This document shows, one piece after another, positions 6,108-64,000 of a DNA stretch of 64,000 nt; the stretch's first letter is position 1; each line of letters begins with the position of its first letter. The notes under the pieces were generated by a model. That model was not told the DNA's origin. It saw nothing but the letters and a program-made list of their open reading frames with translations, and did not search any database. Origin of the DNA: an uncultured Flavobacterium sp. Lineage in GTDB: Bacteria > Bacteroidota > Bacteroidia > Flavobacteriales > Flavobacteriaceae. The translations under genes and the position numbers were made by a program. The stretch is from positions 298,194 to 362,193 of the forward strand of contig CAUPQW010000001.1 of assembly GCA_963513545.1 (NCBI GenBank), read 5' to 3'.

Positions 6108-6610
6108 AAAAAATAATACTAACAGTAATTACACTTTGTATGATAAGTTGTTTTTACACTCGAACAGATTATGGTAATATTAGATTTAAGCCTTATCGAT
6201 TTAGTATAGAACCAAATTCAAATTCTGATGTATATAAGGTTATTGATACTACAAAACTATATGAATTGGTTGACGCTATAAATTTAAAATACAATCAGAG
6301 GCCTAATAGTTTAAAAAAGCAATTTTTAAAATTCTATGCCAATGGTCGAGTTGGAGAATTTGAAGTTTATTATCCGAGCGATATTAAATCATTAGATCCA
6401 AAAAAAGCAAATATGGCTTATTACAATTATAATGGCAAAAGTCTAATTATTCAAATTTATTTTGAACATCCCCAAGGAGGAGGATTAATAAACAAGAATT
6501 TTAAAGAAATTAAAGGAGATACTTTAGAATTGGTAAACGATGATTATTCGTATAAATACAAAATTATAGATTTATCAAAGGAATTTTTAATTTACAAACC
6601 TGATTGGTAA
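6101..6610 (+). CDS. putative immunity protein of the RHS toxin (lipoprotein-like signal)
   Basis: The ATG at 6101 overlaps the toxin stop (ATGGTAA, stop 6105-6107). The N-terminus MVKKIILTVITLCMISC has a lipobox-like Cys. The gene sits in the canonical immunity slot right after an RHS tip. No family recognised. Confidence 0.6.
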   Translation: MVKKIILTVITLCMISCFYTRTDYGNIRFKPYRFSIEPNSNSDVYKVIDTTKLYELVDAINLKYNQRPNSLKKQFLKFYANGRVGEFEVYYPSDIKSLDPKKANMAYYNYNGKSLIIQIYFEHPQGGGLINKNFKEIKGDTLELVNDDYSYKYKIIDLSKEFLIYKPDW

Positions 6611-44886: not shown

Positions 44887-45280
44887 GGGGTCGACTGGTT
44901 TTGACAGCAAGTCGAATTGAAAAGTAAGCACGTCGAGCATTGAGACCTTGCTCGTAAATATAAGATCTTACACTTTTACACGGCGAAAATAACTACGCTT
45001 TAGCTGCATAATCCGAATTATAGTACGATTAGCCACGTCCCTACAAGGTAGGGAAGCTGGATTCTCCTTGAAAGCCTTGGTTTGTGGCGTTCTGTTTAGG
45101 GGAACCGTAAAAATAAACCTAGATTTCCATGAGCTTCGGGTGGATTTTGAAAATTAAGAAGATAAGTGTTGAGTGGCTGTTTCTGGCCTTGCTTAACATC
45201 GAAAATCTAATCAGGAAATAAGCGTGTAGAAAGCTCTTTAGTTGCTTGTTTGGACCCGGGTTCGATTCCCGGCGACTCCA
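44887..45280 (+). ncRNA. ssrA: tmRNA (transfer-messenger RNA)
   Basis: 5' GGGGTCGACTGGTTTTGACAGC. Tag reading frame 44982-45011 = GENNYALAA stop. 3' T-arm and acceptor GGACCCGGGTTCGATTCCCGGCGACTCCA, with the G:U acceptor pair. Confidence 0.93.
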
Positions 45281-48392: not shown

Positions 48393-48818
48393 CTACATGG
48401 AATTGGATTGGCTTTTCCTTTTTCTCTTAGCTTCCTTTGGCACTTCAGGTCCATCATCGTCGGCAGTTTGGTTTTGCTTTTTACTGCCTTGTTTCTCGGA
48501 AGTCTGCTGGGTTTCAGTTTGTTTTTCTTCTTGGCTTTTACGATTGTCAATTCGTTTCATATTATTATCATAGATATTAATTGTTTTGAATTGCGGGCTG
48601 GCTTCAATGTACTGCTTGATCTCATTGCTTTCTTTTAAGAAAGTAGCGCTCTGCAGATTTCCCTTTTTCAAAGAATTCATCAAGTCTTCTTTGTATTTTG
48701 GGGTTTCCAGTTCCTTAATCGGATGTTTGGACAATGCTGCTTCTAAATCATAGCCGTAATTCTGGTGGTAATGGTTTAGTTTAAAATTTCCATTAGTTTC
48801 GGATTGTTTGAAGTCCAT
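48393..48818 (-). CDS. mobile-element protein carrying the same ~60-aa module, with a Lys/Glu/Gln-rich tail
   Basis: See the paralogous module above. The start abuts the truncated coupling-protein gene. Confidence 0.55.
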   Translation of the reverse strand: MDFKQSETNGNFKLNHYHQNYGYDLEAALSKHPIKELETPKYKEDLMNSLKKGNLQSATFLKESNEIKQYIEASPQFKTINIYDNNMKRIDNRKSQEEKQTETQQTSEKQGSKKQNQTADDDGPEVPKEAKRKRKSQSNSM

Positions 48819-49691
48819 TTGAACCCCGCCTACCTAAATAACGTAATGGACCAATTGGAGGGGCAGATTGCTTCTGCAAAAATTGCCATGGCAAGGCTTT
48901 CCTCACCACAATTGTATTATGTTTTGTCCGGCAGCGATTTCACATTGGACATCAATAATCCGGACGATCCTAAGATCGTATGTATGGGTAATAATCCGCA
49001 GAAAATCCAGATTTATGGAGCTGTATTGTCACTTTACGTAAACCGATTGGTAAAGCAGGTAAACCAAAAAAACAAACAGAAAAGCAGTTTGATATTCGAT
49101 GAATTTCCAACTATTTATCTTAACAATATGGACAGTCTAATTGCAACTGCAAGAAGTAATAAAGTGGCAACCTGTTTGGGTATTCAGGATTTTAGCCAGC
49201 TCCGTAAAGACTATGGACGAGAACAGGCGGATGTTATTATGAATATTGTTGGGAACATTGTCAGCGGGCAGGTTACTGGGGATACTGCCAAACAATTATC
49301 AGAGCGTTTTGGGAAAATTATGCAGGACAGGGAAAGCCTTTCGATTAATAGTGGGGATACGTCAATCAGCCGCTCCAAACAATTGGAATCAGCAGTACCG
49401 CCGTCCAAAATTTCCGGACTTAGTTCCGGTGAGTTTGTAGGTATGGTAGCCGATGATCCGGATTGTAAAATCGAACTCAAAACATTTCATTCTGAAATAA
49501 TTAATGACCATCAGGCGTTGAAAATCGAACAGGATAATTACGTCGATATTCCTGTCATTCGAAAAGTCGATAATGCGATGGTACAGCGAAATTATCTGCA
49601 GATAAAAAAGGATATCAAGGATATCATTTATGCTGAAAAGGAAAGACTGTTGAATGATATTGAATTGAGCCATCTGGTAATTAAGAAATGA
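48804..49691 (+). pseudogene. 5'-truncated type IV secretion coupling protein (Bacteroidota TraG/TraD-type T4CP), C-terminal ~295 aa only
   Basis: LIFDEFPTIYLNNMDSLIATARSNKVATCLGIQDFSQLRKDYGREQADVIMNIVGNIVSGQVTGDTAKQLSERFGK is the conserved C-terminal ATPase part. No Walker A or TM N-terminal half. The frame opens only at 48798 after a TAG, and the only available start is a TTG. Confidence 0.7.
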
Positions 49692-50689
49692 TAATAAATA
49701 AAAACTTAAACTTAGAAATAATGATACAGGAACAATTTATCGATATAATCCAATTAATAAAACAATCCAGATCAAAAGCTATTGCTGCTGTTAATACTGA
49801 AATGATTAATCTGTACTGGAATATAGGACAGTATATTCATAATCGTATAGAAACAGCAGAGTGGGGAAAATCAGTCGTAAAAGAACTGGCTGATTTTTTA
49901 CAGAAAAGCGAACCTGATTTAAAAGGATTTTCCGATAAAAATCTTTGGAGGATGAAGCAATTTTATGAATCATACAGAGGCTATCCAAAACTCTCAACAG
50001 TGTTGAGAGAAATTAGCTGGTCACATAATCTTGCTATTTTTTCAAGATGTAAAACGATACAAGAAAAAGAGTTTTATCTGAAGTTAGCAAAGCAAGAAAA
50101 CTATAGTTTTAGGGAATTGGATCGACAGATTTCTTCCAGTCTTTATGAAAGAACTATGTTAGGTAATGCAAAACTCTCAACAGTGTTGAGAGAAATTCAT
50201 CCGGAGGCTCTAAATGCCTTTAAAGACAGTTATATTTTTGATTTTTTAAACCTTGTAGAGCCACATAAGGAGGGAGATCTACAGAAAGGACTGATAAAAC
50301 AAATGAAAAATTTTATCTTGGAATTGGGTAAAGATTTTTTATTTGTAGAAGAAGAATATAAAATTCAGGTCGGTAATAGTGATTTTTTTATTGACTTGTT
50401 ATTCTATCATAGGGGATTACAATGCCTTGTAATATTTGAGTTAAAATCTGATAAATTTAAACCTGAGCATTTAGGACAACTTAATTTTTATCTGGAAGCA
50501 CTTGATCGTGATGTAAAAAAAGAAAACGAAAATTCAAGTATTGGTATTTTATTATGCAAAGACCAAGACCACGCAGTGGTAGAATATGCTTTAAGCAGAA
50601 GTCTTTCTCCAACCATGGTTGCAGAATATAAGGTTCAACTTCCGGACAAACAATTGCTAATGCAAAAAATGCAAGAATTATTAAAATAA
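49688..50689 (+). CDS. DUF1016/YhcG-like PD-(D/E)xK nuclease family protein
   Basis: The N-terminal helical part (INLYWNIGQYIHNRI, FSDKNLWRMKQFYESY) and the C-terminal core (FIDLLFYHRGLQCLVIFELKSDKFKPEHLGQLNFY) fit the YhcG pattern. The ATG overlaps the upstream stop (ATGA). Confidence 0.7.
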   Translation: MIINKNLNLEIMIQEQFIDIIQLIKQSRSKAIAAVNTEMINLYWNIGQYIHNRIETAEWGKSVVKELADFLQKSEPDLKGFSDKNLWRMKQFYESYRGYPKLSTVLREISWSHNLAIFSRCKTIQEKEFYLKLAKQENYSFRELDRQISSSLYERTMLGNAKLSTVLREIHPEALNAFKDSYIFDFLNLVEPHKEGDLQKGLIKQMKNFILELGKDFLFVEEEYKIQVGNSDFFIDLLFYHRGLQCLVIFELKSDKFKPEHLGQLNFYLEALDRDVKKENENSSIGILLCKDQDHAVVEYALSRSLSPTMVAEYKVQLPDKQLLMQKMQELLK

Positions 50690-50938
50690 AAGTTATGATG
50701 ACTAAAGTAACTAAAAAAAACTCAATTAGATATTTCTATTTCTTCTAGATTGATATCTGCTAAAGGAATTTATTGAGTTGTGATTAAAAAAAGGCTTATA
50801 ATATTATAAATATGGCTCATTTGTAACTAATCATATTTTTTTGACATTATTTAAGTACTTTACATTGTAATTAACCAATAAATTGGAGTAGGCAATAAAA
50901 AAGATAAAACCTTATTTGATTTTAAACAAAATAAATTG

Positions 50939-51379
50939 ATGAATAATAATTTTAATACAATATTATCAACTTTAATGACTGAGTCAATTAATCTTTTAAA
51001 AAATAATTCATCGCAAAGAAGAAAGAGGATAAATAGATTAAGTGCATTAAAAGAGTCATATGTGAAATTTGATAAATTTGATAAATTTGAAACTGATTTC
51101 GAAAAGGATTTTATAGAAGTAGAATTAAAAGAAACCTGCTTCTTTATAATATCTGGAATAGAAACTAACTACACATCAATTCCCATGTATTTGGAATTAA
51201 AAAAGAAATTAGGTTTAAATTTCAGCTGGGTGCATATTAAAAGAGCACAACAACACTTTGACTTGAAAGGTGATATAATTAAAATCAATTTAAATAAGTT
51301 TGAAAAACATTATAGTAACTTCACTTTAATTTCCTTTCCTATTATTTTGTTGATGCAATCATTTAATGTGCCTATTTAA
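50939..51379 (+). CDS. hypothetical protein in a very AT-rich segment
   Basis: ORF only (146 aa from the ATG). The C-terminus becomes hydrophobic just before the stop. Confidence 0.4.
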   Translation: MNNNFNTILSTLMTESINLLKNNSSQRRKRINRLSALKESYVKFDKFDKFETDFEKDFIEVELKETCFFIISGIETNYTSIPMYLELKKKLGLNFSWVHIKRAQQHFDLKGDIIKINLNKFEKHYSNFTLISFPIILLMQSFNVPI

Positions 51380-51583
51380 ATCAAAAATATAAATTAAATG
51401 GAATTTTAGATTATATAATAGTAGTATCCACTTTGATTATACCTTTAATGTTAGCCTATTTGTTTGTAGCTAGTGCTGATTCTATTTTAACAGCTAGAAA
51501 AATAGAAAAAAGATTACAATTTGTAGACTTAAATGGAGAATAAATAATAAGTTGATATTAGACATCTAATTTGAAACTTCTTA

Positions 51584-51626
51584 TTAGTAATTGCTTAAAA
51601 TTAAATAATTTTTAAGCAATTACTAA
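51584..51626. promoter_or_regulatory. perfect 17-bp inverted repeat upstream of the toxin operon
   Basis: Arms ttagtaattgcttaaaa and ttttaagcaattactaa with a 9-nt spacer, about 145 bp upstream of the -7 box. Operator or terminator role unknown. Confidence 0.35.
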
Positions 51627-51771
51627 AAAAGGAGGTAGTTAATTTCTTTTTTAGAATTTTAATTTTCTTATAATGAAAAATATATTTTTCATTCAGGATA
51701 ATACTTTATTAATCGTAAGATTTTTATTTGTCATTAAATAAATATTTGCTTGTCAGTTAATTATAAAATAC

Positions 51772-51779
51772 TATTTTTG
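51772..51779 (+). promoter_or_regulatory. -7 promoter box for the Fn3 / SprB-repeat / toxin operon
   Basis: TATTTTTG (TAnnTTTG) lies 33 nt upstream of the ATG at 51812. Confidence 0.4.
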
Positions 51780-51811
51780 CGTTTTTTTAACATGGAAATA
51801 ATTACATATTA

Positions 51812-53878
51812 ATGTCAAAAAGCAAGCTTCTTTTTTTGTTCTTATTATTTATATCACTATCATATTCTCAGGCTAAACGTGCTACTGTCATGGTCAATGC
51901 CAGAGCTCAAAAAGATAAAATTTTGATTCGTTGGGCTGTTAATTCCCCTGCTGAATGGCAAAAAGCGAATAAAAAAGGATTTATACTTACCAGAACCACA
52001 GTATTACGAGATGGTAATGTTTTACCAAAACCTGAAAAAATTCTTCTTACTCCAAAAGCATTAGTAGCGGAACCTTTGAACGCCTGGCTTGATCTGGTAC
52101 AAAAAGATAATAATGCAGCTATTATAGCACAATCTATTTATGGAGAAAGTTTTGAGGTAACTTCTGCAAAAGAAGGAGATTTGTCAAAAATAGTAAATAT
52201 GGCAGATGAACTGAATCAGCGATATACATTTGCTTTGTATGCAGCCGATATGAGTTTTACCGGTGCGGTAAAAGCGGGCTGGGGATTTGTAGATACCAAT
52301 GTAAAGAAAAATGAAGTCTATGCTTATCAGGTAAGTGTTTTTGAAAGCCCAAAAGTTAAGGAATCATCTTACATGATAGGCTTAAAAGATTATAGTGCAC
52401 TTCCGGCTCCAACTGATTTTATTGCAGTTCCCGACGACAAAAAAGTATTACTTTCCTGGGATTACGAAACCTTTAAAAGAATTTATACCTCTTATATGGT
52501 CGAAAAATCTTCTGATGGAATCAATTTTAATCCCATAGCAACTACGCCTTTAGTAAACTTGAATGATAAAGACGAACATCCGTCAAAAACAATGTATTAT
52601 ATTGATACCCTTAGTGTAAACGATAAGATCTATCAATATCGATTATACGGTATAACTTCATTTGGAGAAAAAGGAGAAGTAACAAAACCAATTACTGCAA
52701 AAGGAGTAGCTGCTATAGTTACAGCGGCAAGGCTTGTAGATTATAATATCATTAATTCAAACGAAGTTAATCTTGAATGGGAATATCCTGTAGCCTCTGA
52801 AGGTTTCATACAAGGGTATGAAATTAATTTAGCGGATAACGATAAAGGTCCCTATAAAATTGTTTCTAAAATTATTCCACCATCCGAGAGAAAACTCAAT
52901 TATAAAGAAAATTTGTACCCCTCTAATTATTTTACAATATCTGTTGTAGGTAAAAATAATCAACGATTAACATCACAAAGTATGTTAGTCCAGCCTGTAG
53001 ATTCTATACCACCTGCAAAACCAATGGGGATCGAAGGAGTAATTGATAGCCTTGGGGTAGTTCGATTAAAATGGAAACCTAATCAGGAAAAAGATTTGCG
53101 AGGATACCGAATTTTAAAAGCCAATAACCCTGATGAAGAGTTTGTTGATATTTATCATCAATCTTATGTTGGTAATGACTATAAAGACAGTGTAAGTCTG
53201 AAGATGACAAACAGTAAGGTATATTATAGAATTGCTGCCGAAGATATGCGTTTTAATATTTCTGACCCATCTGATGTTTTGGTTTTGGATAAACCGGATA
53301 AAATCCCACCAGCAGCACCTATTTTTAAAGACTACGATAATAAAGACGGCAAAGTACATTTAAAATGGATACGAAGTTATAGTGAAGATGTAGTAGGATA
53401 TAGCCTAAGAAGGAGAGAAAAAGGACAAGAAAAGTGGCTGGAAATTAAGCAAATAAATGATACTATCCAGGAATTTACAGATGATAGGGTAGAGAACAAG
53501 AAAACATATCAGTATGCTATTTTGGCAAAGGATAAAAGTAATCTTTGGTCATCGTTAGATCATTCTATCATAACAGTACAGGTTTTAGATTTTACACCAG
53601 TTAAAATAATTACATTTTTACAAGGTGTACCAGACAGGGAAAACAAAAAAATAATCCTGACGTGGAGCTATGCTAAAAACAAAGGCAAAATTACAGGTTT
53701 GAGTATTTATAAAAATATTAAAGGAACGCCACCAACATTGTGGAGAGAATTAAATGGTGATGTTTTTACTTTAGAAGACAAGAATTTAAAGATAAATATG
53801 GAATACGAGTATCACTTGATTCCTGATCTGGAGAATAGCAGCCCTGCAAAAGAAGAAGTTTTAACCGTTGTTTATTAA
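51812..53878 (+). CDS. secreted multi-Fn3-like repeat protein (first gene of the toxin operon)
   Basis: Signal peptide MSKSKLLFLFLLFISLSYSQA. About 6 Fn3-like modules of ~95 aa (KILIRWAV..., KVLLSWDY...YQYRLYGITSFGEKG, VNLEWEYP..., VVRLKWKP...YYRIAAED, KVHLKWIR...YQYAILAKD, KIILTWSY...). No T9SS tail recognised. Confidence 0.8.
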   Translation: MSKSKLLFLFLLFISLSYSQAKRATVMVNARAQKDKILIRWAVNSPAEWQKANKKGFILTRTTVLRDGNVLPKPEKILLTPKALVAEPLNAWLDLVQKDNNAAIIAQSIYGESFEVTSAKEGDLSKIVNMADELNQRYTFALYAADMSFTGAVKAGWGFVDTNVKKNEVYAYQVSVFESPKVKESSYMIGLKDYSALPAPTDFIAVPDDKKVLLSWDYETFKRIYTSYMVEKSSDGINFNPIATTPLVNLNDKDEHPSKTMYYIDTLSVNDKIYQYRLYGITSFGEKGEVTKPITAKGVAAIVTAARLVDYNIINSNEVNLEWEYPVASEGFIQGYEINLADNDKGPYKIVSKIIPPSERKLNYKENLYPSNYFTISVVGKNNQRLTSQSMLVQPVDSIPPAKPMGIEGVIDSLGVVRLKWKPNQEKDLRGYRILKANNPDEEFVDIYHQSYVGNDYKDSVSLKMTNSKVYYRIAAEDMRFNISDPSDVLVLDKPDKIPPAAPIFKDYDNKDGKVHLKWIRSYSEDVVGYSLRRREKGQEKWLEIKQINDTIQEFTDDRVENKKTYQYAILAKDKSNLWSSLDHSIITVQVLDFTPVKIITFLQGVPDRENKKIILTWSYAKNKGKITGLSIYKNIKGTPPTLWRELNGDVFTLEDKNLKINMEYEYHLIPDLENSSPAKEEVLTVVY

Positions 53879-53882
53879 GCTT

Positions 53883-56800
53883 ATGAAGAAAATTTACGTA
53901 TTGATAATTTTATTGGTTTCAGGCTTTTGTTTTAGTCAGGGTGTTGGTGTATATGATGTTAGTTTTAATATAACAGGTATTGATGTAAAAGTAAATATAT
54001 CAGGAAATTGTGGCAGTCGTTTACAATCGTGGCTAATTTTTAGTAATGCTGCTGATCAGTCTTTTTTTTATCAACCAGTTGGTGACGGACAAAATCTTCC
54101 CAGAAATTGGACTGCTACTTTTCCCAGCTCCAATAAACTTACCAAGATTAAATATTATTCTGAGGGAAGGGAATATCATGGAGGGTTGAATTCTGGTTGT
54201 AAAAACGATCACAATAGTACGGAGTCTCAGAATGTTTCATACGGAATTACAGAATATTATATTGGGAATTATTTTACCAGACTTTATAACTTAAGTGCAA
54301 CACTTAAGATCCTTCCTAAACTTCATATAGAAATACCTGCCAATAACATTTTACCAACAACTGACAAGGTTACAATAAAATCCGATACAGGATTTTTGAG
54401 TTCTGAATACAATTGGCAATATTCATTTAATCCTCTTGACTCATCAAGTTGGGTAAGTCTTCCACAATTTAATACGGCAAATATATCGGTAAACGCCTTA
54501 GATGTCTTACCAGTATTGGATGAAACAAGTCATGGGAAAATTGTTTATTTTAGACAAATAGCCTATAATGGGGCTGCGGTTTCAAATCCGGTTCCTTACA
54601 GTATACGTTTATCTGCACCAAAAGTTGCTTCAGCAGTACCTGTTCAGCCAAGTTGTAGTGATACTAATGATGGATTTATAAAACTTGTGTTTGACCGGAC
54701 TTTATATCCCGGCGAACAGTTAAATTATACTTTACTGGACCTTACTACAAATACTCCTACTGATTATAATGGCACATTGTCTATTGCAGCAGATAAATCT
54801 TTTGTCATTTCGGGTTTAAGAAAAGGCAATTATATGCTGCAGCTAATTGGCTTTAAAAATGGATTAAGTACGGCTACTGATGCAGATCGATATGATTTGA
54901 AGTCATTTACAATAGCATCTCCTCCTGTATTGGATTTTACGCTAAACAGCACTGATGTACAATGTTACGGATCTCAGGACGGTACCATAACGATTACTCC
55001 AACCGGAGGAACCCGGACTGTATTAGACAATGATTATTATTCATTAGATAATGGATTGAACTGGGTTGCTTTTCCTAATAATACACCACATACTATTACC
55101 GGTTTGGAACTTGGTACATACAAAGTGAAATTAAAAGATATGAATGGCTGTATTGCTAGAATTCAAACATCAGTAAATGGAGAGATTCAGCTTGGTGATG
55201 ATAAAGTACTGGAAAAAACGATTTCACAACCCGCATCACCATTAACACTCAATTACACATTCAAAAAAGATCCCACCTTTTACGGAGCAGCTAACGGAAA
55301 ATTAACAGCCTCGATAACTGGTGGAACAATCAATGATGATAAATCGTATGAGTACGAATGGAAAAATAGTAATGGTATAGCTTTACTGGCAACAGCACAG
55401 TATAATGCTGCTGATAAAACGTATAATATTACCTTAGATAATGTTCCTGAAGGAGAATACAAACTGACAGTCAAAGATAAAAATTACAGTAATGCTAGTA
55501 ATAAAACAGCTTGTTCGATTATAGAATCATCACAAATATTAACCCAGCCTGATCAAATTATTATTGCTTTAGCAGAAACACAGCCTATTTCCTGTAATAC
55601 TGGAAATTTAGAATCAGATGTAAATAAATTCTCAGACGGAATTTTAAAAGCGACAGTAAGTGGTGGCGTTAAATTTACAGGATCAGCAAATAATGGTTTG
55701 CCTTATAAATTTATCTGGTCAAAATACAATACTGCAACAAATTTATGGGAAGAGTTGACAGATTATAAAACAGATACTGCAGAGAATCTTTCAAAAGGAA
55801 ACTATTCGCTAAACATTACAGATGCGAACGGAATAGTACAAGGAACTTATAACACTACAGATCTAGTAACAGCAGTTCCAACAACAAAAGAAATCGCTGA
55901 ACCCACAAAATTGGAATTGTCATTTACCTCAGAAAATGTTTTCTGTCACCAGGGAAATAATGGTTGGGCTACTGCAACTGTCACCGGAGGAACAGGGGCT
56001 TATACATATACATGGTACAATACGGGTAACGGAACTATTGACCAAAACAAAATAACTCAGTTAACAGCAGGGGAATATTTTGTTGAGGTGACAGATGCAA
56101 AGGGCTGTTTTATAAAAGGTAGTATCAAAATTAGTGAGCCAACGGAAATGGTAAAAATTGACTACGAAGAAATTTTCACGCCTACCTTTTCAGGAGCCAC
56201 TAACGGAAGAATTATAGCCAGGATAACAGGAGGAACACCAAATGATGATCAATCCTATAATTACGAATGGAAAAATGGAGCAGGAGTATTACAAACGACA
56301 ACAGCTGAAATAAAAGACGGCATTTATACCATTACGCTAAATGGTGTTCCTGCCGATGATTATTTTTTAACCATAAAAGACAAGAATTATAACGAAGCAA
56401 TAAATCAAATTATTAATTGTTCGGTCTTAGAGTCAAAAGTGACATTGAATCAGCCTGATCCTTTAAAAGTTGTTTTTGAAATCGTCCGTACTATTTCTTG
56501 TAATACAAGTAACGAGTTCGGAAATGATACAGATACAACACCAAATGACGGTCAGCGTGATGAATCGCAAGATGGTATTTTAACCGCTCATGTTTCAGGA
56601 GGAACTCCGCTGGCATCCTCTGTAAATAATGGATTACCGTATTATTTTTATTGGAAAAAGCAACAGACAGATGGCTCCTGGACCAGCTTACCTGACATTA
56701 CGGGAGAAACAGCTTCGGATCTTTCTCATGGGAATTATGCCTTAAATGTAAAAGACAGAAACGGAATCATGTTAGGAACTTACATCAATAACCAGCTTAC

Positions 56801-58973
56801 ACAAGAAATTGACGCAACCCAATTGATGCAGGAACCTCCCAAATTATCCGTAACCATTACCCATGGCGATGTGTTTTGTAATGATGGAAATGATGGTTGG
56901 GCTACAGCAAATGTTGTGGGCGGAACCCCTCCGTATGATTATAAATGGTCGAATGAAGTAGAAATTGATACAAACACTGTTTTAAAAGCGGGTGAATATT
57001 GGGTATTTATTACAGATGCCAAAGGATGTACTACGCAAGAAAGTATTACGATTTCAGAACCTGCAGCACCGCTTGCTATTAAATATATCGAAGTTCTTAA
57101 TCCAAGTTTTTACAAAGCGACCAATGGAAAAATAGTGGTAGAAGTTACCGGTGGTACTATTTTCTCAGACAACTCCTATTGGTTTGAATGGAAAAATAGT
57201 AAAGGAATTGTACAAACGACAACCACAACGAATTTCAGTAACGGAGTTTATACCATTTCCTTAAACGGGCTTCCGGAGGAAATGTATAGCTTAACAGTTC
57301 GTGATGCCAATTATAATCCTGCAACAAATAAAACAAGTTGCACCGTGGCAAATTCTTTAACAGCTTTAGACGACCCGGATCCGCTTGAAGTTACTTTTGA
57401 GGTAGTTCGTACTATTTCCTGTAATGTGAGTAATGAATTTGGAAATGAGACCGATGCTGATCCGATGGACAATCAAAGAGATGAATCGCAGGATGGTCTT
57501 TTGACAGCCCATGTTAAGGGAGGGATTCAGTTGCAGGCGGATAAAAATAACGGATTGCCTTATTTTTATACATGGAAAAAACAACAAAAAGATGGTTCGT
57601 GGACAATCTGGAATGATCAGGATGAAACCGCAGAAAATTTGTCTGACGGAACCTATGCTTTGAATATTGAAGATGCCAACGGAATAAAACTCGGAACGTA
57701 TCTCAATAATATTTTGGTTCAGGCAAAAGATGTTGCCCAATATATGCCGGAGCCTGAAAAATTAAAACTCACTTTTACTAAGTTAGATGTAGGCTGTACA
57801 ACAGGAAATGACGGTTGGGCAGAAGCGCATGTTTCCGGGGGCACTCCACCTTATATGTATGAGTGGACAAATGGAGAAACAACCCCAAGAATAGAAAACA
57901 TTACCACAAACAATTACTTTGTAATCGCAACCGATGCAAAAGGTTGTATTGTTCAGGGAAGCATTTTTGTTGGTGATCCAAAAGGAATATTTACGACTGA
58001 AATCATCAAAAATACTACTTGTTATCAAGGGAATGATGCTTCGATAGAATTAAATGTTACAGGTGGAAATTTACCTTACAGCTATTTATGGAACACTGGT
58101 GCTACGACCAAAGACCTAAATAATCTTACAGCAGGAAATTATGAAGTTGCTATTACCTGTCCTGATTGCTGTACATATAAAAAGAAATTTGTTTTAAAAG
58201 ATCCGCAACCTGTTATTGTAAATATTGGTCCTGACAGAACCTTATGCAACGATCAGAATCTGGATTTAGAGGCGAAAATTGCAGATCCGAAAGCACAATA
58301 CAGCTGGACCTCTACAAATGGATTTACCTCGAATGAAGCAAAAGTAAATGTATCAAAAGCCGGAACCTATCACGTAAAAGTAACTTCAGGTTTAGGATGT
58401 GTTAGCGAAGATGAAATTGTAATAAAAACAAGTCAGGCAGTAATTAATTCCGAATTTTTATTGAGCTCTCAGGCTTATTTGGATGAAGAAGTAATATTGA
58501 TTAATACAAGCAGCCCTATTGGCGAAGATACAGAATGGGTGATACCTCAAGGGGTGAATAGTATAGAGCAAAACGAAAAATACGCAACACTCAAATTTAG
58601 TGCGATTGGTACTTATACCATTGGTCTGAAGCAAACACAAGGGGAGTGTTATGCTACATTTAATAAAAATATTACGGTAGAGCAACGAAGTACATTACCT
58701 AATACAGGCACAACATCGCAATTCATTGTAGATTTTATCGTAACTCCAAATCCGAGTAATGGTAATTTTAAAGCACTTGTGACTTTAGAAAACAATAGTG
58801 ACATAAACCTAAGACTATTCTCAACAACAGGACAAAATACTATGATTCAGAAAAAAGAATCCGGAAAGAAAAAGTATGAAATAGATTTTGAGACCACATT
58901 AGAATCCGGAATGTATGTTTTAGTATTAGAAACAGGGCAACAAACATTGGTTAAAAAAATTATCATCAATTAA
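53883..58973 (+). CDS. giant SprB-repeat cell-surface protein with T9SS type-A C-terminal sorting domain
   Basis: ATG at 53883 (MKKIYVLIILLVSGFCFSQG), 4 nt after the upstream stop. SprB-type repeats: CHQGNNGWATATVTGGTGAYTYTWYN, CNDGNDGWATANVVGGTPPYDYKWSN, CTTGNDGWAEAHVSGGTPPYMYEWTN, CYQGNDASIELNVTGGNLPYSYLWN. C-terminal TPNPSNGNFKALV...GMYVLVLETGQQTLVKKIIIN. Confidence 0.88.
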   Translation: MKKIYVLIILLVSGFCFSQGVGVYDVSFNITGIDVKVNISGNCGSRLQSWLIFSNAADQSFFYQPVGDGQNLPRNWTATFPSSNKLTKIKYYSEGREYHGGLNSGCKNDHNSTESQNVSYGITEYYIGNYFTRLYNLSATLKILPKLHIEIPANNILPTTDKVTIKSDTGFLSSEYNWQYSFNPLDSSSWVSLPQFNTANISVNALDVLPVLDETSHGKIVYFRQIAYNGAAVSNPVPYSIRLSAPKVASAVPVQPSCSDTNDGFIKLVFDRTLYPGEQLNYTLLDLTTNTPTDYNGTLSIAADKSFVISGLRKGNYMLQLIGFKNGLSTATDADRYDLKSFTIASPPVLDFTLNSTDVQCYGSQDGTITITPTGGTRTVLDNDYYSLDNGLNWVAFPNNTPHTITGLELGTYKVKLKDMNGCIARIQTSVNGEIQLGDDKVLEKTISQPASPLTLNYTFKKDPTFYGAANGKLTASITGGTINDDKSYEYEWKNSNGIALLATAQYNAADKTYNITLDNVPEGEYKLTVKDKNYSNASNKTACSIIESSQILTQPDQIIIALAETQPISCNTGNLESDVNKFSDGILKATVSGGVKFTGSANNGLPYKFIWSKYNTATNLWEELTDYKTDTAENLSKGNYSLNITDANGIVQGTYNTTDLVTAVPTTKEIAEPTKLELSFTSENVFCHQGNNGWATATVTGGTGAYTYTWYNTGNGTIDQNKITQLTAGEYFVEVTDAKGCFIKGSIKISEPTEMVKIDYEEIFTPTFSGATNGRIIARITGGTPNDDQSYNYEWKNGAGVLQTTTAEIKDGIYTITLNGVPADDYFLTIKDKNYNEAINQIINCSVLESKVTLNQPDPLKVVFEIVRTISCNTSNEFGNDTDTTPNDGQRDESQDGILTAHVSGGTPLASSVNNGLPYYFYWKKQQTDGSWTSLPDITGETASDLSHGNYALNVKDRNGIMLGTYINNQLTQEIDATQLMQEPPKLSVTITHGDVFCNDGNDGWATANVVGGTPPYDYKWSNEVEIDTNTVLKAGEYWVFITDAKGCTTQESITISEPAAPLAIKYIEVLNPSFYKATNGKIVVEVTGGTIFSDNSYWFEWKNSKGIVQTTTTTNFSNGVYTISLNGLPEEMYSLTVRDANYNPATNKTSCTVANSLTALDDPDPLEVTFEVVRTISCNVSNEFGNETDADPMDNQRDESQDGLLTAHVKGGIQLQADKNNGLPYFYTWKKQQKDGSWTIWNDQDETAENLSDGTYALNIEDANGIKLGTYLNNILVQAKDVAQYMPEPEKLKLTFTKLDVGCTTGNDGWAEAHVSGGTPPYMYEWTNGETTPRIENITTNNYFVIATDAKGCIVQGSIFVGDPKGIFTTEIIKNTTCYQGNDASIELNVTGGNLPYSYLWNTGATTKDLNNLTAGNYEVAITCPDCCTYKKKFVLKDPQPVIVNIGPDRTLCNDQNLDLEAKIADPKAQYSWTSTNGFTSNEAKVNVSKAGTYHVKVTSGLGCVSEDEIVIKTSQAVINSEFLLSSQAYLDEEVILINTSSPIGEDTEWVIPQGVNSIEQNEKYATLKFSAIGTYTIGLKQTQGECYATFNKNITVEQRSTLPNTGTTSQFIVDFIVTPNPSNGNFKALVTLENNSDINLRLFSTTGQNTMIQKKESGKKKYEIDFETTLESGMYVLVLETGQQTLVKKIIIN

Positions 58974-58975
58974 AA

Positions 58976-61900
58976 ATGAAGAACTTTTTCAAAAATATAA
59001 TTTTATTCATATTGTTCCCCCTTTGGGGGCTAGGGGGATTTGGCTCAGGGGCTTACGCTCAGCTTTATCCGGTTCAGTTAACACCTGTTTTCAATAGTCC
59101 GTATAGTGTCAAAATGTCGGATTATACCAACAGCATGGATATTAAAATGCAATTGCTGATCAATCCTACAGATATCTCTATATCGCAAAGACAGGTACGT
59201 CTAAAATTTTACATACAAGGTAACGGACTCAACATACAAAGCAGTGATTATATACAGGGGCAGCGCCCAATTTTTATAAATGGTGGAGAATTGCAAACGC
59301 TTACCAATACTGATATTGCGGCACTATTTAGGTTAGAAAATCTGCAGGGAATTTCTCCTGCACAATATGCCAATGGATTACCTGAAGGGATGTATAGCTT
59401 TTGCTTTGAAATGTATGATTTTGTGACCAACCAGAAGATCTCACAAAAAAGCTGTTCCAGTTTATACCTGATCTTAAATGATCCACCAATATTAAATACG
59501 CCACAAAAAAACGAACAAATTGCTTCAACAGAATTTCCGAATATTTTATTTACCTGGACACCGCGCCAGATCAATGCAACCAATGTATCGTATAAGTTTG
59601 AGTTAAAACAGCTTATTGATCCTGCATTAGACCCACAATTCGGGTTTCAAATGTCTCCCATTTTATATGAGGAAACACTTTTTGGGACTGCTTTGCTGTA
59701 TAATTTAAGCATGCCAATTCTTACCCCTGGATTGCGTTATGCATGGCGGGTAAAAGCGATTTCGACCACAGGACTTTCAGAGAATGCCATATTTAAGAAT
59801 GATGGATACAGCGAGATCTATTCGTTTAAATATACATCGTCCTGTACTGCCCCAACTTTTTTATTAAGCGAATCCCAGAGTTCTAAAAGTGTCAAAATCA
59901 CTTGGCAAGGAACGCCGGAACATACACGCTATCAGGTACAATACAAAAAACAAGGTGTTCGTAATGCACAATGGTTTTCGATCAATAGTTTAAACACACA
60001 AAGCTTAATCACCAATTTAGAGCCCGGTGTTACGTATCAGTTTAGAGTAGGTTCAAGCTGTGATCCCGTAACCGAAGGCGTTCAGTCGTTTACCTATTCC
60101 GGCATCAGCACCTTTACAACACCTACAGAGACAAGTGGCGTTGCTGCTTATAACTGTGGTATTATTCCTCAAATTAATATTCAGAACCAAAAACCGCTTA
60201 CGAATTTAATACAAGGCGAAACGTTTAAGGCGGGCGATTTTCCGGTCACAATTTCTGAACTTAAAGGCGAGAACAGTCCTTATTCAGGACGCGGTTATAT
60301 AATGGTTCCTTATTTAAATCAAATTAAAATAGCTGTTCAGTTTAGTAATATCACGATCAATACCGATTATCAATTGATTAGCGGTGTTGTGGAAACGGCT
60401 TATGATGCGAAGTGGAGTGATGTTGTTAATGGAAAAGAAATAATTGATGATGTAAAAAGTTTACTGGAAGGAATTGCGGATCTCTTTAATAGAGCCGATG
60501 AATTAGAAAAGCAAAAAGCGGCGGGTACAACTAGTGAAGAAGATTATAATAAGAATTGGAAAGAAATTTATGCTGGTCTGGAAAAAGCTAAGGAACAATA
60601 TAAAACATTAGTAAATGCTCCTGATATTCCTGAGGACTTAAAGAAAAAAGTTGCTGATTTAGATCCGGTTTTTGTTGAGTTGGCTTCTAATAATTATACA
60701 ACGTCAGGCAATCAAAACCAGGAGAATTTAGCAAAAACAAACGCAGTTTTTGATGAAGTAAATAAGTTTTTTAGTGAAAAATGTGATGTTGCACTTAAAA
60801 GTGTTGTAGCCTTTTTAGCGACAGAAAAAGTAACTTATTTAAAATTAGTAGCCAGTGAAGTGTCAAAAACTACAGCATCAGTTTCAGGAAGCAAGACATA
60901 TATGACCTCTATTTATGAGGAAGGAAAAGGCACTTTAAAAATAATACATTATAAAGGATGGAGTATTAGTAACCCTGTCCAGAACTTATTTTTGATTGAG
61001 ACCAATGATGCAGAATTAAATAAATTAAAAATAACAAAATTTTGGTTGAGCTATGTCCCCAATAGTGTAGATGGATATGCAGCGGGAGTTGATGTAACAA
61101 TTTATTTTAAAGATCCGGTACCAAATCCTGATGAACCTTTTTGTACACAAAAAACCACTATTGTCAAAGGTGTTTCTGCGCAAGCACAATTTTCAGATGC
61201 AATGGGACAAATGGTTTTTTATGGAGCTTTAGGTTTAGGTTCAGTAGAGGCATTAGCAAGCGTAAAAGCAACCGAATGTATTACAGGATTTGCCCTTGAT
61301 ACAGGCTTTCAAATGGGGATAAATGCTATTGTAAAACGATATTTGAATGAGAGTTTTACGACGAAACAATTAATGAAAGAAGTTTCCCTGCCAAGTGCAG
61401 CGACAAGCTGTGCAACAGCGGCTCTAGTAAATAAATGCGGTACGGGATGTGCAGGTGTTAGTGGTTTTGTAGTAGGTTTTGGTGATGATATTTTAAACCA
61501 GCTAAAAAGCGGAAAAAGCTTATCTGAGGTAGAAATTAGCCAAAGTACTTTAAACGGTATAAAGCAAGCAATTTTAACTATCGTACTTCAAAAAGTAATT
61601 ACTTTTGGTATAGGTAAATTTTCTGCATGGAAGGGTAAATATACACCAAAACAGGTTGAAGATGCTTTAGAAGATTTGCAGGCTAACCCTGAGAAGTATG
61701 GAGTTGAAGGAGCTTTAGTAGCAAAGAATGTTGAGGATGTGATTTCAAAAAAGGTTTTAAAAACGATCACGAAATACGATAGAAAGTTAGGAAAAACGGT
61801 TGAATATCCAATGTATAATAATTTAGCTTTAGGAAAAGATTTAAATGGTACCCTTAAAAAATTTGGTGATGAAGTTGGCGCTAATGTTTGGACTGCTGAA

Positions 61901-62221
61901 ACTGATAATGTTTTTACTTCAATGTATGATCTTATGGATAGTAGAAGTTTCGAGAGAAACATTTCTGATGTATTTACTCAAACGATCAAAAATGAAGGAA
62001 AAATACTTTTTGATATAACTAGTGTAAATATTCAAAAAGCAATTGATGGAGGTTTAACACATAATACTAAATTGGTACTTGATGATAAACTAGTTACAGA
62101 ATTAGAATTACAATTAATTCTAAGAAATCAATCTTGGTTTGAAAATGTTATATTCCATAATCAAGGGAAGATATTATCTAATCAAGAGCTTACAAATGCA
62201 GGTATTAAATTAATTAATTAG
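58976..62221 (+). CDS. polymorphic toxin: signal peptide, conserved N-terminal domain, Fn3, coiled coil, Gly/Cys-rich pre-toxin region, conserved handle, ~170-aa variable C-terminal tip
   Basis: ATG 2 nt after the upstream stop. Signal MKNFFKNIILFILFPLWGLGGFGSGAYAQ. Fn3: VKITWQGTPEHTRYQVQYKK...YQFRVGSSC. The handle GFGDDILNQLKSGKSLSEVEISQSTLNGIK...GIGKFSAWKGKYTPKQVEDALEDL..PEKYG is duplicated at 62660-62895 in front of a different tip. Confidence 0.8.
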   Translation: MKNFFKNIILFILFPLWGLGGFGSGAYAQLYPVQLTPVFNSPYSVKMSDYTNSMDIKMQLLINPTDISISQRQVRLKFYIQGNGLNIQSSDYIQGQRPIFINGGELQTLTNTDIAALFRLENLQGISPAQYANGLPEGMYSFCFEMYDFVTNQKISQKSCSSLYLILNDPPILNTPQKNEQIASTEFPNILFTWTPRQINATNVSYKFELKQLIDPALDPQFGFQMSPILYEETLFGTALLYNLSMPILTPGLRYAWRVKAISTTGLSENAIFKNDGYSEIYSFKYTSSCTAPTFLLSESQSSKSVKITWQGTPEHTRYQVQYKKQGVRNAQWFSINSLNTQSLITNLEPGVTYQFRVGSSCDPVTEGVQSFTYSGISTFTTPTETSGVAAYNCGIIPQINIQNQKPLTNLIQGETFKAGDFPVTISELKGENSPYSGRGYIMVPYLNQIKIAVQFSNITINTDYQLISGVVETAYDAKWSDVVNGKEIIDDVKSLLEGIADLFNRADELEKQKAAGTTSEEDYNKNWKEIYAGLEKAKEQYKTLVNAPDIPEDLKKKVADLDPVFVELASNNYTTSGNQNQENLAKTNAVFDEVNKFFSEKCDVALKSVVAFLATEKVTYLKLVASEVSKTTASVSGSKTYMTSIYEEGKGTLKIIHYKGWSISNPVQNLFLIETNDAELNKLKITKFWLSYVPNSVDGYAAGVDVTIYFKDPVPNPDEPFCTQKTTIVKGVSAQAQFSDAMGQMVFYGALGLGSVEALASVKATECITGFALDTGFQMGINAIVKRYLNESFTTKQLMKEVSLPSAATSCATAALVNKCGTGCAGVSGFVVGFGDDILNQLKSGKSLSEVEISQSTLNGIKQAILTIVLQKVITFGIGKFSAWKGKYTPKQVEDALEDLQANPEKYGVEGALVAKNVEDVISKKVLKTITKYDRKLGKTVEYPMYNNLALGKDLNGTLKKFGDEVGANVWTAETDNVFTSMYDLMDSRSFERNISDVFTQTIKNEGKILFDITSVNIQKAIDGGLTHNTKLVLDDKLVTELELQLILRNQSWFENVIFHNQGKILSNQELTNAGIKLIN

Positions 62222-62225
62222 TTAT

Positions 62226-62552
62226 ATGGAAAAAATAACAGAAATTTTTGGATTACAAATACACGCAATAATTCATTATTATAATGAAAAAAAAATATCA
62301 ATAAGTTTTGATAATACTAATATAAGAATAGAATTTTATAATTGTCCCCTGGTTTTCGACTCAGGTATTATAGGAAAAAAAGTGCTAGTAGCCGAAAGGT
62401 ATAAAGGAGAGATGAGTTTTGTACTTGTTTTTAGAGAAATGAAATTGGATGTCGATGATTATAAATATTTTATAATTAAAGGGCAAGAAGGGTTAGAGCA
62501 TTATCAGAATCAAATAAGAATTGCGTATCAATCGATGGAGATAATTTTATAA
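62226..62552 (+). CDS. putative cognate immunity protein of the 1081-aa toxin
   Basis: 108-aa ORF starting 4 nt after the toxin stop. No signal peptide. No family recognised. Position-based call. Confidence 0.55.
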   Translation: MEKITEIFGLQIHAIIHYYNEKKISISFDNTNIRIEFYNCPLVFDSGIIGKKVLVAERYKGEMSFVLVFREMKLDVDDYKYFIIKGQEGLEHYQNQIRIAYQSMEIIL

Positions 62553-62674
62553 TAATTTATTGATTTTCCCTAATTCCGAACTACTAGGTTTTTTAGCGAT
62601 TTTAAAAACTTTCGGATGATAGTTGATATCAATCATTTTATAAAACCTTTACATAAACAGGTTTTGGTGATGAT

Positions 62675-63532
62675 GTGTTGAACCAGTTAAAAAGTGGAAA
62701 AAGCTTATCTGAGGTAGAAATTAGCCAAAGTACATTAAACGGTATTAAGCTAGGTATTTTAAATATTGTGGTCCAAAAAGCAATTACTTTTGGTATAGGT
62801 AAATTTTCTGCTTGGAAAGGTAAATACACTCCAAAACAGGTTGAAGAGGCATTGGAGGATTTAGAATTACATCCCGAGAAGTATGGATTGAAAGGTACTG
62901 AAATAGACGCGACTTTAAGTATAATGCTTAAAAATGCAGATTTTAAAAAGATTTATGAAAATTTGAGTAATGGTAATATTACGAGGGTTTATAGTAAAAT
63001 CTTTAGTATTGAAGAAGAAGCATTAATAAGATTTTATCAAGAAGGTTCATATTACAATTTCAATCAAGCATTAATTAACAAAACTGCTTCACAAGATATA
63101 TTAACTATTGAAAAGATGTTAAATAAGACTTTAGATAAAATTCCATCCAAAGCAGGTAATTATTTCAGAGGTGTAGGAAAAGAAGAAACCTTGAAATTAT
63201 TAGCAAAAAAAGAAGGTGGTGAAATTGGATATGATAATTTTCTATCTAGCTCAAGCGAAAAAGATGTAGCTTGGGGTTTTCTAAGAAAGGTTAATGAGAT
63301 GGATGAAAAAGCATTTATAACAGTAATATCTAAAAATGGCAAAAATCTTGAGAGTGGTAGAGATGTTATGAGAGGAGAGTTTGAAATGCTGCATAAAAGT
63401 AAAACAAAATTCGAAATAGAAAAGATTGAATTTATTGAGAAAGAAATTTTAAATATAGATGATGTAGCAATTGATGGTGCAACACCAGATGTAATCAAGA
63501 AATTTTATTTAATAACAATAAAAGAATTATGA
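62675..63532 (+). CDS. orphan toxin cassette: handle remnant plus ADP-ribosyltransferase-like tip (no ATG start)
   Basis: The frame opens right after a TAA (62654-62656), and homology to the main gene begins at 62660. Only GTG/TTG starts are available (62675/62678). ART signature: SYYNFNQALI, YFRG (Arg codon 63167-63169), FLSSSSE (63245-63256), GEFEML (E-x-E, 63377-63385). Confidence 0.7.
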   Translation: MLNQLKSGKSLSEVEISQSTLNGIKLGILNIVVQKAITFGIGKFSAWKGKYTPKQVEEALEDLELHPEKYGLKGTEIDATLSIMLKNADFKKIYENLSNGNITRVYSKIFSIEEEALIRFYQEGSYYNFNQALINKTASQDILTIEKMLNKTLDKIPSKAGNYFRGVGKEETLKLLAKKEGGEIGYDNFLSSSSEKDVAWGFLRKVNEMDEKAFITVISKNGKNLESGRDVMRGEFEMLHKSKTKFEIEKIEFIEKEILNIDDVAIDGATPDVIKKFYLITIKEL

Positions 63533-64000
63533 GATTAGAGGAGATAGAAAAAATAGAAGAGTTATATCTTTTAAAAAATTCTCACAGATATGAGATACAG
63601 CTTATAGAAGGTTTAAAAAAGGATTTGTATTGGGCATCGCTTTCAGATAAGGAAAAGCTTGAATTAAGAACAAAAGAATTGATGAAAAAATATGTTTTTA
63701 AAGAAATATATTCGGATTTAATGATTTCGTATGAAGAGTCTGTTATAGATTTGGTTAAACTCATAATGAAATTCTTAGATGAAATTAATTTAATTGTTTT
63801 TGATTTTCAAAATATGTCAGAAGATGAATTTATATTATTTCGCTTAAAAAATATGATGTGTGTAGAGTTATATGCTGTAAATAAAAGGGAAAAACTTCAA
63901 TATTCTGGGCATGTACTTTTTGAAGAAGTTGTACAGCCTATTTTTGTTGAGATAGAAAGGACTGAATTTTATATACAATACAGCTTAGAAGATCTAAGAG
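63529..64000 (+). CDS. putative immunity protein of the orphan ART tip, 3'-partial (absent from the ORF track)
   Basis: The ATG at 63529 overlaps the toxin stop (ATGA). Hand translation MRLEEIEKIEELYLLKNSHRYEIQLIEGLKKDLYWASLSDKEKLELRTKELMKKYVFKEIYSDLMISYEES... stays open for 157 codons to the window end. Confidence 0.6.
   Translation, partial: MRLEEIEKIEELYLLKNSHRYEIQLIEGLKKDLYWASLSDKEKLELRTKELMKKYVFKEIYSDLMISYEESVIDLVKLIMKFLDEINLIVFDFQNMSEDEFILFRLKNMMCVELYAVNKREKLQYSGHVLFEEVVQPIFVEIERTEFYIQYSLEDLR

Follow-up and report, generated by a model that had tools for sequence, protein, structure and literature searches.

Organization of the locus

We analysed a 64,000-nucleotide (nt) stretch of DNA from an uncultured Flavobacterium sp., hereafter the window. 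Positions 51812-64000 of the window had been put forward, from the sequence alone, as a surface-linked toxin delivery locus. This locus holds four closely packed genes, which encode a fibronectin type III (Fn3) protein, a SprB-repeat protein, a polymorphic toxin and a candidate immunity protein, followed by an orphan toxin-tip/immunity module. We consider it very likely that these genes make up the 5' half of a Flavobacterium cassette for a polymorphic toxin of the TANFOR class. Its features are listed below, with lengths in amino acids (aa).

51772-51779, + strand: TAnnTTTG match TATTTTTG, read directly, 33 nt before the first ATG
51812-53878, + strand: Fn3 gene, 688 aa, open reading frame (ORF) and translation read
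53883-58973, + strand: SprB-repeat gene, 1696 aa counted from the ATG
58740-58970, + strand: type-A C-terminal sorting domain of the SprB-repeat protein, residues about 1620-1696
58976-62221, + strand: toxin gene, 1081 aa, with putative signal peptide, TANFOR (residues 41-164), a second conserved beta-rich domain (to 290), fn3 (292-358), central region, Gly/Ala-rich pre-tip and variable tip
61474-61721, + strand: pre-tip block, 248 nt, 83% identical to 62659-62906, ending ...PEKYGVEG at residue 912
61712-62221, + strand: main tip, toxin residues 913-1081, an uncharacterised domain family
62226-62552, + strand: immunity candidate gene, 108 aa, beginning 4 nt past the toxin stop
62659-63532, + strand: orphan toxin module, a pre-tip homology block and then an ADP-ribosyltransferase-like tip, with no N-terminal trafficking region
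63529-64000, + strand: orphan immunity candidate, sharing an ATGA overlap with the orphan tip and running past the window end

The ORFs and their translations confirmed the four genes, their sizes and the 2-4 nt junctions that the original prediction had described; the intergenic gaps are 4, 2 and 4 nt. The mechanical start of the SprB-repeat ORF is a TTG at 53868, five codons 5' of the ATG. No terminator-like sites were found on the + strand of the locus. Together with the 2-4 nt gaps, this suggests that the four genes are co-transcribed.

The TAnnTTTG motif is a Bacteroidota promoter element, and the four genes had been proposed to sit behind a single such box. The box is present at 51772-51779, in a stretch conserved with the Flavobacterium cheongpyeongense cassette (locus L011), but eight further + strand copies lie inside the locus and the motif occurs in the window at chance frequency (103 observed vs 106 expected). 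Because the motif is at chance frequency and recurs inside the locus, the box is uninformative on a single promoter, and we rejected it as evidence of one. A sigma-70 scan (76 sites vs 60 expected in shuffles) models the wrong promoter type for Bacteroidota and was discarded as uninformative.

DNA homology with the L011 cassette (91% identity) begins at 51709 and stops at 60424, and homology with F. pectinovorum reaches further, to 61710. This pattern fits a variable island between conserved flanks. A 147-aa ORF at 50936-51379 was rejected as a cassette gene because homology to related cassettes begins only at 51709.

Assignment of the toxin to the TANFOR class

TANFOR-containing proteins were defined, by RPS-BLAST, as a polymorphic-toxin class of Bacteroidetes (Jana, Salomon & Bosis 2020, Life Sci Alliance; PMC7073777). 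The class comprises 339 proteins, about 87% of which have Sec signals, with many kinds of C-terminal toxin and with downstream immunity genes. Its gene neighbourhoods are enriched in SprB repeats, Fn3, PKD and Por_Secre_tail. A type IX secretion system (T9SS) is present in over 95% of the TANFOR genomes, and it was hypothesised to export the toxins (PMC7073777).

The N-terminus of the window toxin matches TANFOR (TIGR02542; NCBIfam hmmscan, E 2.6e-8), with a score of 33.9 bits that lies under the NCBIfam trusted cutoff of 67. Toxin residues 41-164 (nt 59096-59467) align to positions 12-142 of the 145-position model, covering 131/145. The closest relative, P0001 (WP_078228562.1) of Flavobacterium sp. 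LM4, is 95% identical over 84% of the toxin length and has a deaminase tip. WP_078228562.1 is listed in Supplemental Data 1 of the class-defining paper, with TANFOR at 33-166 and FN3 at 292-358; the SprB/Por_Secre_tail gene before it ends 4 nt upstream (PMC7073777). Given the TANFOR match and this listed 95% orthologue, we place the locus in the published class, and we hold the membership of the toxin with high confidence. Homologues of the toxin end in varied C-terminal tips on a conserved N-terminus, an immunity candidate gene lies downstream, and the locus has the SprB/Por_Secre_tail/Fn3 neighbourhood of the class, with the PKD protein seen in related loci. TANFOR itself is present by the definers' RPS-BLAST criterion and sub-threshold by that of NCBIfam. 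Because the score falls under the NCBIfam cutoff, relatives are mostly annotated as 'fibronectin type III domain-containing protein'; JGI and UniRef name toxin homologues TANFOR.

Residues 1-290 form a strongly conserved module, made up of TANFOR and the second beta-rich domain; in sequences that share 39-68% identity with the window protein, 40 of its positions are invariant. When compared with 1.84 billion representative proteins, this module matched 3046 clusters at E<=1e-3, of which 826 reached E<=1e-30. Almost all of the matches are N-terminal, in proteins 600-3500 aa long. Homologues that are 65-95% identical to the toxin over their N-terminal 45-90% end in PF14424, PF14440, PF14412, PF13930, PF03496 or no known tip, so that the tips comprise deaminase, AHH, Endonuclease_NS_2 and ADP-ribosyltransferase domains or belong to no known family. 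The toxin consists of a conserved N-terminal part, roughly 480-910 residues long, with an exchangeable tip at its C-terminus.

We found no Rhs/YD, PAAR, VgrG, Hcp, MIX/FIX, LXG/WXG or MafB domain in the six ORFs of 51812-64000 (Pfam, NCBIfam), and the toxin has no Rhs, PAAR, VgrG, TpsB, VENN or LXG marker in the same searches. The original prediction was thus right about Rhs, PAAR, VgrG, TpsB, VENN and LXG, but wrong in holding that markers of known polymorphic-toxin routes are altogether missing, since the N-terminus matches TANFOR TIGR02542. No T9SS C-terminal domain (CTD) was found on the toxin at E<=0.01 in Pfam or NCBIfam, in agreement with the original prediction. A known type V, VI or VII secretion (T5, T6 or T7) trafficking domain at the N-terminus was rejected as an explanation, since Pfam and NCBIfam gave no match and the profile search of residues 1-290 against PDB sequences gave weak Fn3/Ig-like titin matches only.

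One toxin homologue, P0062, is 86% identical to Flavobacterium toxins and carries the label Pseudomonas shirazensis. The published genome table also holds Pseudomonas fluorescens and Halomonas entries without T9SS genes (Supplemental Data 5, PMC7073777). The Pseudomonas and Halomonas entries are possibly contaminated or mis-binned assemblies rather than spread of the class outside Bacteroidota.

The cassette proteins and their conserved order

All three large proteins bear N-terminal signal-peptide-like sequences. That of the toxin, read by eye, is MKNFFKNIILFILFPLWGLGGFGSGAYA, cut before Q, and SignalP values for its orthologue WP_078228562.1 are SP(Sec/SPI), Pr 0.53-0.81 (PMC7073777). The 688-aa protein matches Pfam fn3 (E 9.9e-12), and it has no NCBIfam family and no T9SS CTD at E<=0.01 (Pfam, NCBIfam). 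The 1696-aa protein contains six SprB repeat stretches (Pfam SprB, E 2.4e-52) and ends in a Por_Secre_tail (PF18962, E 1.3e-11) and a type-A T9SS sorting domain (TIGR04183, 45.4 bits vs cutoffs of 23-27). Among the CTDs that mark T9SS cargo, type A (TIGR04183/PF18962) or type B (TIGR04131), the SprB-repeat protein thus has type A. Pfam and NCBIfam therefore bear out the Fn3 domain, the SprB repeats and the T9SS tail first recognised from the sequence.

We investigated how widely these genes occur together. One genome per species was scanned, 384 loci were found to encode a relative of the N-terminal module, and 80 of these loci were fetched and searched by tblastn with the window proteins. Homologues of the Fn3 protein and of the SprB-repeat/CTD protein both lie upstream of the toxin and on its strand in 58/80 loci. 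The SprB-like gene abuts the toxin gene in 42 of the 58, and one gene stands between them in the other 16. Genera with such cassettes include Flavobacterium, Tenacibaculum, Capnocytophaga, Myroides, Aquimarina, Spongiimicrobium and Gelidibacter. The Fn3 gene is the conserved first gene of the cassette, with full-length homologues at the same position in all 58, and its product is 75-95% identical within Flavobacterium and about 40-66% identical in other genera. Gene order and strand are kept across genera whose proteins have diverged to 35-50% identity. The Fn3/SprB-repeat/toxin synteny, which the original prediction had proposed as a check for a dedicated system, is therefore strongly conserved in several genera of Flavobacteriaceae, and the locus passes that check. 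These data confirm and refine the published association rather than establish a new one.

The remaining loci comprise nine on short contigs, which are indeterminate, and 13 'solo' loci, whose upstream 10 kb hold no Fn3 or SprB-like genes. For ten of these 13, the sample also contains a full cassette from the same genome. Both kinds of locus are found in F. piscis, F. collinsii, sp. ACN2, F. pectinovorum, F. soyae, F. araucananum, F. ginsenosidimutans, sp. 1355 and Spongiimicrobium. This distribution fits accessory proteins that are able to serve several toxins, with partners acting in trans.

Exchangeable tips and candidate immunity proteins

The conserved part of the toxin's subfamily ends at ...PEKYGVEG, residue 912, and the sequences diverge after it. 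Homology to the F. pectinovorum protein P0002 and locus L006 likewise stops at the pre-tip block. The orphan module carries a second copy of this block, 62659-62906, which encodes 62/74 residues identical to toxin residues 839-912 before the sequences diverge. Based on these boundaries, the pre-tip block is likely to be a recombination site for tip exchange. The 248 nt that it shares with the promoterless orphan module would allow a tip swap by homologous recombination.

The pre-tip region at 61181-61490 (residues about 735-838) is rich in Gly, Ala, Val and Ser (48/108 residues). It has moderately hydrophobic stretches, and Kyte-Doolittle peaks of 1.2-1.4 fall at residues 745, 815 and 861-866. 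That this Gly/Ala-rich pre-tip might be a membrane-interacting or translocation segment is speculation.

The main tip has no Pfam match, even at E<=10. It has 25 homologues, all short orphan-like ORFs, from the Bacteroidota genera Flavobacterium, Chryseobacterium, Fulvivirga and Runella. AlphaFold2 modelled the tip confidently, with a predicted local distance difference test (pLDDT) score of 92.3. Foldseek found no match to this model in the PDB (best E 0.26, TM-score about 0.3) or in BFVD. Attempts to assign an activity through Pfam, Foldseek PDB and BFVD thus all gave nothing.

The 108-aa protein downstream has no Pfam or NCBIfam family and no signal peptide. Its homologues lie directly 3' of tip homologues in Chryseobacterium (L081, 69% identity) and Fulvivirga (L083, 49%, E 2e-30), and tip and 108-aa homologues travel together in three genera. 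Because the pair travels together, we read it as a toxin and its immunity protein. The 108-aa protein is therefore a candidate cognate immunity protein, and it co-varies with the tip across genera. Since the fold of the tip is predicted with confidence and has no known relatives, the conserved pair of tip and 108-aa protein is a candidate for a new toxin activity.

Other arrangements of these genes were seen in single loci. Flavobacterium sp. 270 (L015:14572-14892) has an 84%-identical copy of the 108-aa gene with no detectable cognate tip, and F. frigoritolerans (L050:14931-15432) has a 47-aa tip fragment with a 33%-identical immunity-like ORF. Both look like orphan immunity genes or decayed modules. 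In Chryseobacterium bernardetii (L081, JBBCUL010000001.1), a long orphan array lies 3' of a large Fn3-containing toxin. In this array, a CdiA_C-domain module and its SitI3 immunity gene come before the homologue of the window tip and the immunity gene of that homologue. A second cassette, with a 695-aa Fn3 protein and a SprB/CTD protein, starts about 3 kb further on.

The orphan tip matches Pfam ADPrib_exo_Tox (PF03496) weakly, at E 0.011 and 15.5 bits, under the cutoff of 23.4. By BLASTP it is 33% identical (E 7e-10) to the ADP-ribosyltransferase domain of the TANFOR toxin P0115, which is listed as VIP2-type (PMC7073777). The alignment matches the Arg, Ser-x-Ser and Glu-x-Glu positions of the two proteins (YFRGV/VYRGV, SSSSE/SSSTS and EFE/EME). 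These data suggest that the orphan tip looks like an ADP-ribosyltransferase. The orphan immunity candidate has 60-69% identical homologues 3' of the toxin in the arrays of TANFOR loci L002, L012 and L018. Overall, the searches support the original reading of the locus as a polymorphic toxin, with a candidate for its cognate immunity protein and an orphan module of tip and immunity gene.

Cassette genes of related loci

Related loci contain further genes that recur in the cassette. The first encodes a lipoprotein, about 450 aa long and carrying three PKD domains, which accounts for the PKD enrichment reported for the class (PMC7073777). The second encodes a protein of about 550-570 aa ending in ...NFNYSYNF, which is 818 aa long in many Flavobacterium genomes owing to a C-terminal extension of about 250 aa. 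We predict it to be a large unclassified outer-membrane beta-barrel and call it the barrel below. Examples of these and other genes are as follows.

L007:16485-17828, L056:8572-9936 and L071:6925-8286: PKD lipoprotein
L007:17865-19532, L013:16642-19098 and L071:8283-9935: barrel
L047:688-2010: TIG/BNR lipoprotein, about 440 aa, 3' of the immunity array in Flavobacterium
L007:15597-16463: secreted protein, about 282-288 aa, 3' of the immunity array in Flavobacterium
L047:5103-9719, L065:233-4582 and L062:40-2646: secreted protein, about 1450-1540 aa

Within the fetched spans, the PKD lipoprotein occurs in 44/80 loci and the barrel in 32/80. Among the 58 full cassettes, the PKD lipoprotein is missing from 16 and the barrel from 28, mostly where fetch length or a contig end limits the view. 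In Tenacibaculum, Aquimarina and Capnocytophaga, the PKD lipoprotein gene follows the SprB-like gene and precedes the toxin gene; in Flavobacterium it is found 3' of the variable immunity array. The barrel gene adjoins it or follows the toxin/immunity array. The protein of about 1450-1540 aa has no Pfam match, ends in ...KFKN.N.FRF and precedes the Fn3 gene in genera other than Flavobacterium; in the F. columnare-group loci L045, L047 and L048 it is encoded directly upstream of the toxin.

Neither Pfam nor NCBIfam matched the barrel, even at E<=1, and no POTRA, TpsB, Omp85, usher or PorP/SprF signature was found at that threshold. A sequence profile search found no match in the PDB. The barrel has more than 1893 relatives, a few of which are auto-named 'porin family' or 'outer membrane protein beta-barrel domain'. 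AlphaFold2, run on a shallow alignment of members at least 68% identical, gave an all-beta model with about 26-28 long strands at low confidence (pLDDT 51). Foldseek returned MtrB, TonB-dependent receptors, FimD/PapC ushers and SprA, all at TM-scores of 0.38 or less. We rejected a family assignment from these matches, which indicate the large-barrel class only. The barrel, the lipoproteins and the orphan modules are not mentioned in PMC7073777.

In Flavobacterium, the gene order is Fn3, SprB-like, toxin, immunity/orphan array, the protein of about 282 aa, TIG/BNR lipoprotein, PKD lipoprotein and barrel. The 3' block of this order, from the protein of about 282 aa to the barrel, is present in L007, L011 and L013, and it begins 5.3-10.5 kb past the toxin start. 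It would be cut off here because the window ends 5.0 kb past the toxin start. By analogy with these relatives, the PKD lipoprotein and the barrel probably lie just past the window end in the source genome. An exact-sequence search with the toxin gave no record from which the contig could be followed further than position 64000.

Proposed export of the toxin

Based on these data, we propose the following mechanism. The Fn3, SprB-repeat and toxin proteins would enter the periplasm via Sec. The T9SS would recognise the C-terminal domain of the SprB-repeat protein, export the protein and display it. The tail-less toxin would reach the surface through its TANFOR module, in association with conserved cassette partners, which in related loci include the PKD lipoprotein and the large outer-membrane beta-barrel. 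Upon contact with a competitor, the tip would enter the target cell, and the orphan tip would ADP-ribosylate a target. Cytoplasmic immunity proteins would protect sibling cells. We regard membership in the TANFOR class, and with it this general reading of the locus, as very probable, and any single specific export route as possible at best.

Several points weigh against the proposal. The sub-cutoff TANFOR score is shared by 7/9 diverse relatives scanned, and the other two have no match. Signal peptides were judged by eye and, for the orthologue, from published SignalP values. Pfam, Foldseek PDB and BFVD offer neither a known fold nor an activity for the main tip. The barrel model has low confidence and resembles generic large barrels only, and the presence of the PKD lipoprotein and the barrel in the source genome is extrapolated from relatives rather than visible in the window. 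No published experiment shows TANFOR export, display, contact dependence or toxicity, except for the BaCT DNase domain (PMC7073777), and we found no later paper in the literature that tests TANFOR toxin export.

The most serious alternative, which we consider possible though not likely, is that export is independent of the T9SS. In this case the cassette barrel and the PKD lipoprotein would form a translocon or anchor, similar to an usher or a two-partner pore, and the SprB-repeat and Fn3 proteins would be adhesins that only hold the target. The barrel and the lipoprotein are conserved across genera, and although their position relative to the toxin shifts, it remains within the cassette. The barrel belongs to no known family, and the toxin has no T9SS tail. 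However, the barrel lacks POTRA, TpsB, Omp85 and usher signatures, its model has low confidence and it is not seen in the window. The PKD lipoprotein and the barrel are also absent from the fetched span of 16 and 28 of the 58 full cassettes, respectively, mostly through fetch or contig limits, and the T9SS co-occurs with TANFOR in more than 95% of genomes (PMC7073777).

A reading that joins the two routes is that the full cassette is a dedicated contact-dependent delivery apparatus of Bacteroidota, in which the T9SS exports the fibre and the orphan barrel, instead of the T9SS translocon, passes or anchors the toxin. We think this unlikely on present evidence. The parts of such an apparatus would be the Fn3 protein, the SprB-repeat fibre, the PKD lipoprotein, the barrel and, in some genera, the protein of about 1500 aa. 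If delivery through the barrel is correct, it would be a new outer-membrane secretion or display pathway.

It is improbable that the genes are merely adjacent, with a Sec-exported toxin released by lysis or vesicles and unrelated adhesin genes beside it. The solo loci would fit this explanation, and no experimental link between the cassette genes exists. Against it, order and strand are conserved in genera diverged to 35-50% identity, the gaps between genes are only 2-4 nt, and most genomes with a solo locus have a full cassette at another site.

That the locus is an undescribed surface-linked delivery system distinct from all known polymorphic-toxin classes, as first claimed, is very improbable: classical T5, T6, T7, Rhs and MAF markers are absent and the outer-membrane step of the toxin is unexplained, but the class, its SprB/Fn3/PKD/CTD neighbourhood and the T9SS export hypothesis were all published in 2020, with an orthologue of the window toxin in the table (PMC7073777). 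The terms 'undescribed' and 'a delivery mode not described' therefore do not hold.

The TANFOR class and its T9SS association were thus already known (PMC7073777), and the locus is no new kind of system. What is new beyond that paper is the cassette census, the barrel and lipoproteins, the uncharacterised tip/immunity pair and the orphan module. The gene list from the census is sharper than the published domain enrichment, and it adds the unclassified barrel and the lipoproteins, which were unseen by a domain-based survey. Depending on the TANFOR export route, the T9SS or a new barrel could turn out to take part in bacterial warfare. Such a role would be accessible to experiment. Flavobacterium is genetically tractable, and T9SS mutants exist.

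Relation to known systems

The locus most closely resembles the published TANFOR toxins (PMC7073777). It shares with them TANFOR and Fn3 behind a putative signal peptide, a variable C-terminal toxin, a downstream immunity candidate, a SprB-repeat/Por_Secre_tail gene a few nt upstream, and Fn3 and PKD neighbours. It differs in its uncharacterised tip/immunity pair, with no Pfam or PDB match for the tip, in its orphan ADP-ribosyltransferase-like module and in its sub-cutoff TANFOR score.

The contact-dependent CdiB/CdiA/CdiI systems (type Vb) also have a large surface-directed toxin with a conserved body, a demarcated exchangeable tip and an immunity gene directly 3'. In both, orphan tip/immunity modules keep a short homology block, and a barrel gene is found, here in the cassettes of relatives. 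However, the window toxin lacks a two-partner secretion (TPS) domain, haemagglutinin repeats and VENN, and the barrel of relatives has no POTRA/ShlB signature. The TANFOR cassette adds Fn3, SprB-repeat and PKD proteins, with a T9SS tail on one partner.

The gliding adhesin SprB of Flavobacterium johnsoniae is encoded in sprCDBF and is a type-B cargo of the T9SS with a SprF/PorP-like adaptor. As in that system, the window encodes a giant SprB-repeat protein predicted to be exported by the T9SS, and in related loci the accessory proteins include an outer-membrane barrel. In contrast, the sorting domain in the window is type A (TIGR04183) rather than type B, the cassette barrel of about 570-820 aa has no PorP/SprF match, and a toxin/immunity array is embedded among the genes. 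Rhs/YD toxins with orphan arrays, whether linked to type VI secretion (T6SS) or free-standing, likewise have a polymorphic tip, an immunity gene and downstream orphan modules, but 51812-64000 has no RHS/YD repeats, PAAR or VgrG.

Other genes in the window

The region upstream of the cassette holds a large serine recombinase (45238-46794, - strand), a 295-aa fragment of a TraG/type IV secretion system coupling protein (48804-49691, + strand) and a YhcG PD-(D/E)xK nuclease (49688-50689, + strand). These genes are mobile-element remnants directly upstream of the cassette. G+C content drops to 0.262 at 50001-52000, ahead of the Fn3 gene. The upstream flank differs from that of relatives because cassette homology starts only at 51709.

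A second, unrelated polymorphic toxin lies at 39-6107 (+ strand). It is an example of the Rhs/YD toxins compared above: its 2022 aa include FG-GAP and RHS repeats, and Ntox23 (E 1.3e-36) forms the tip. Its gene is overlapped by a 169-aa ORF of no family at 6101-6610 (+ strand), which is likely to be the immunity gene for the Ntox23 toxin.

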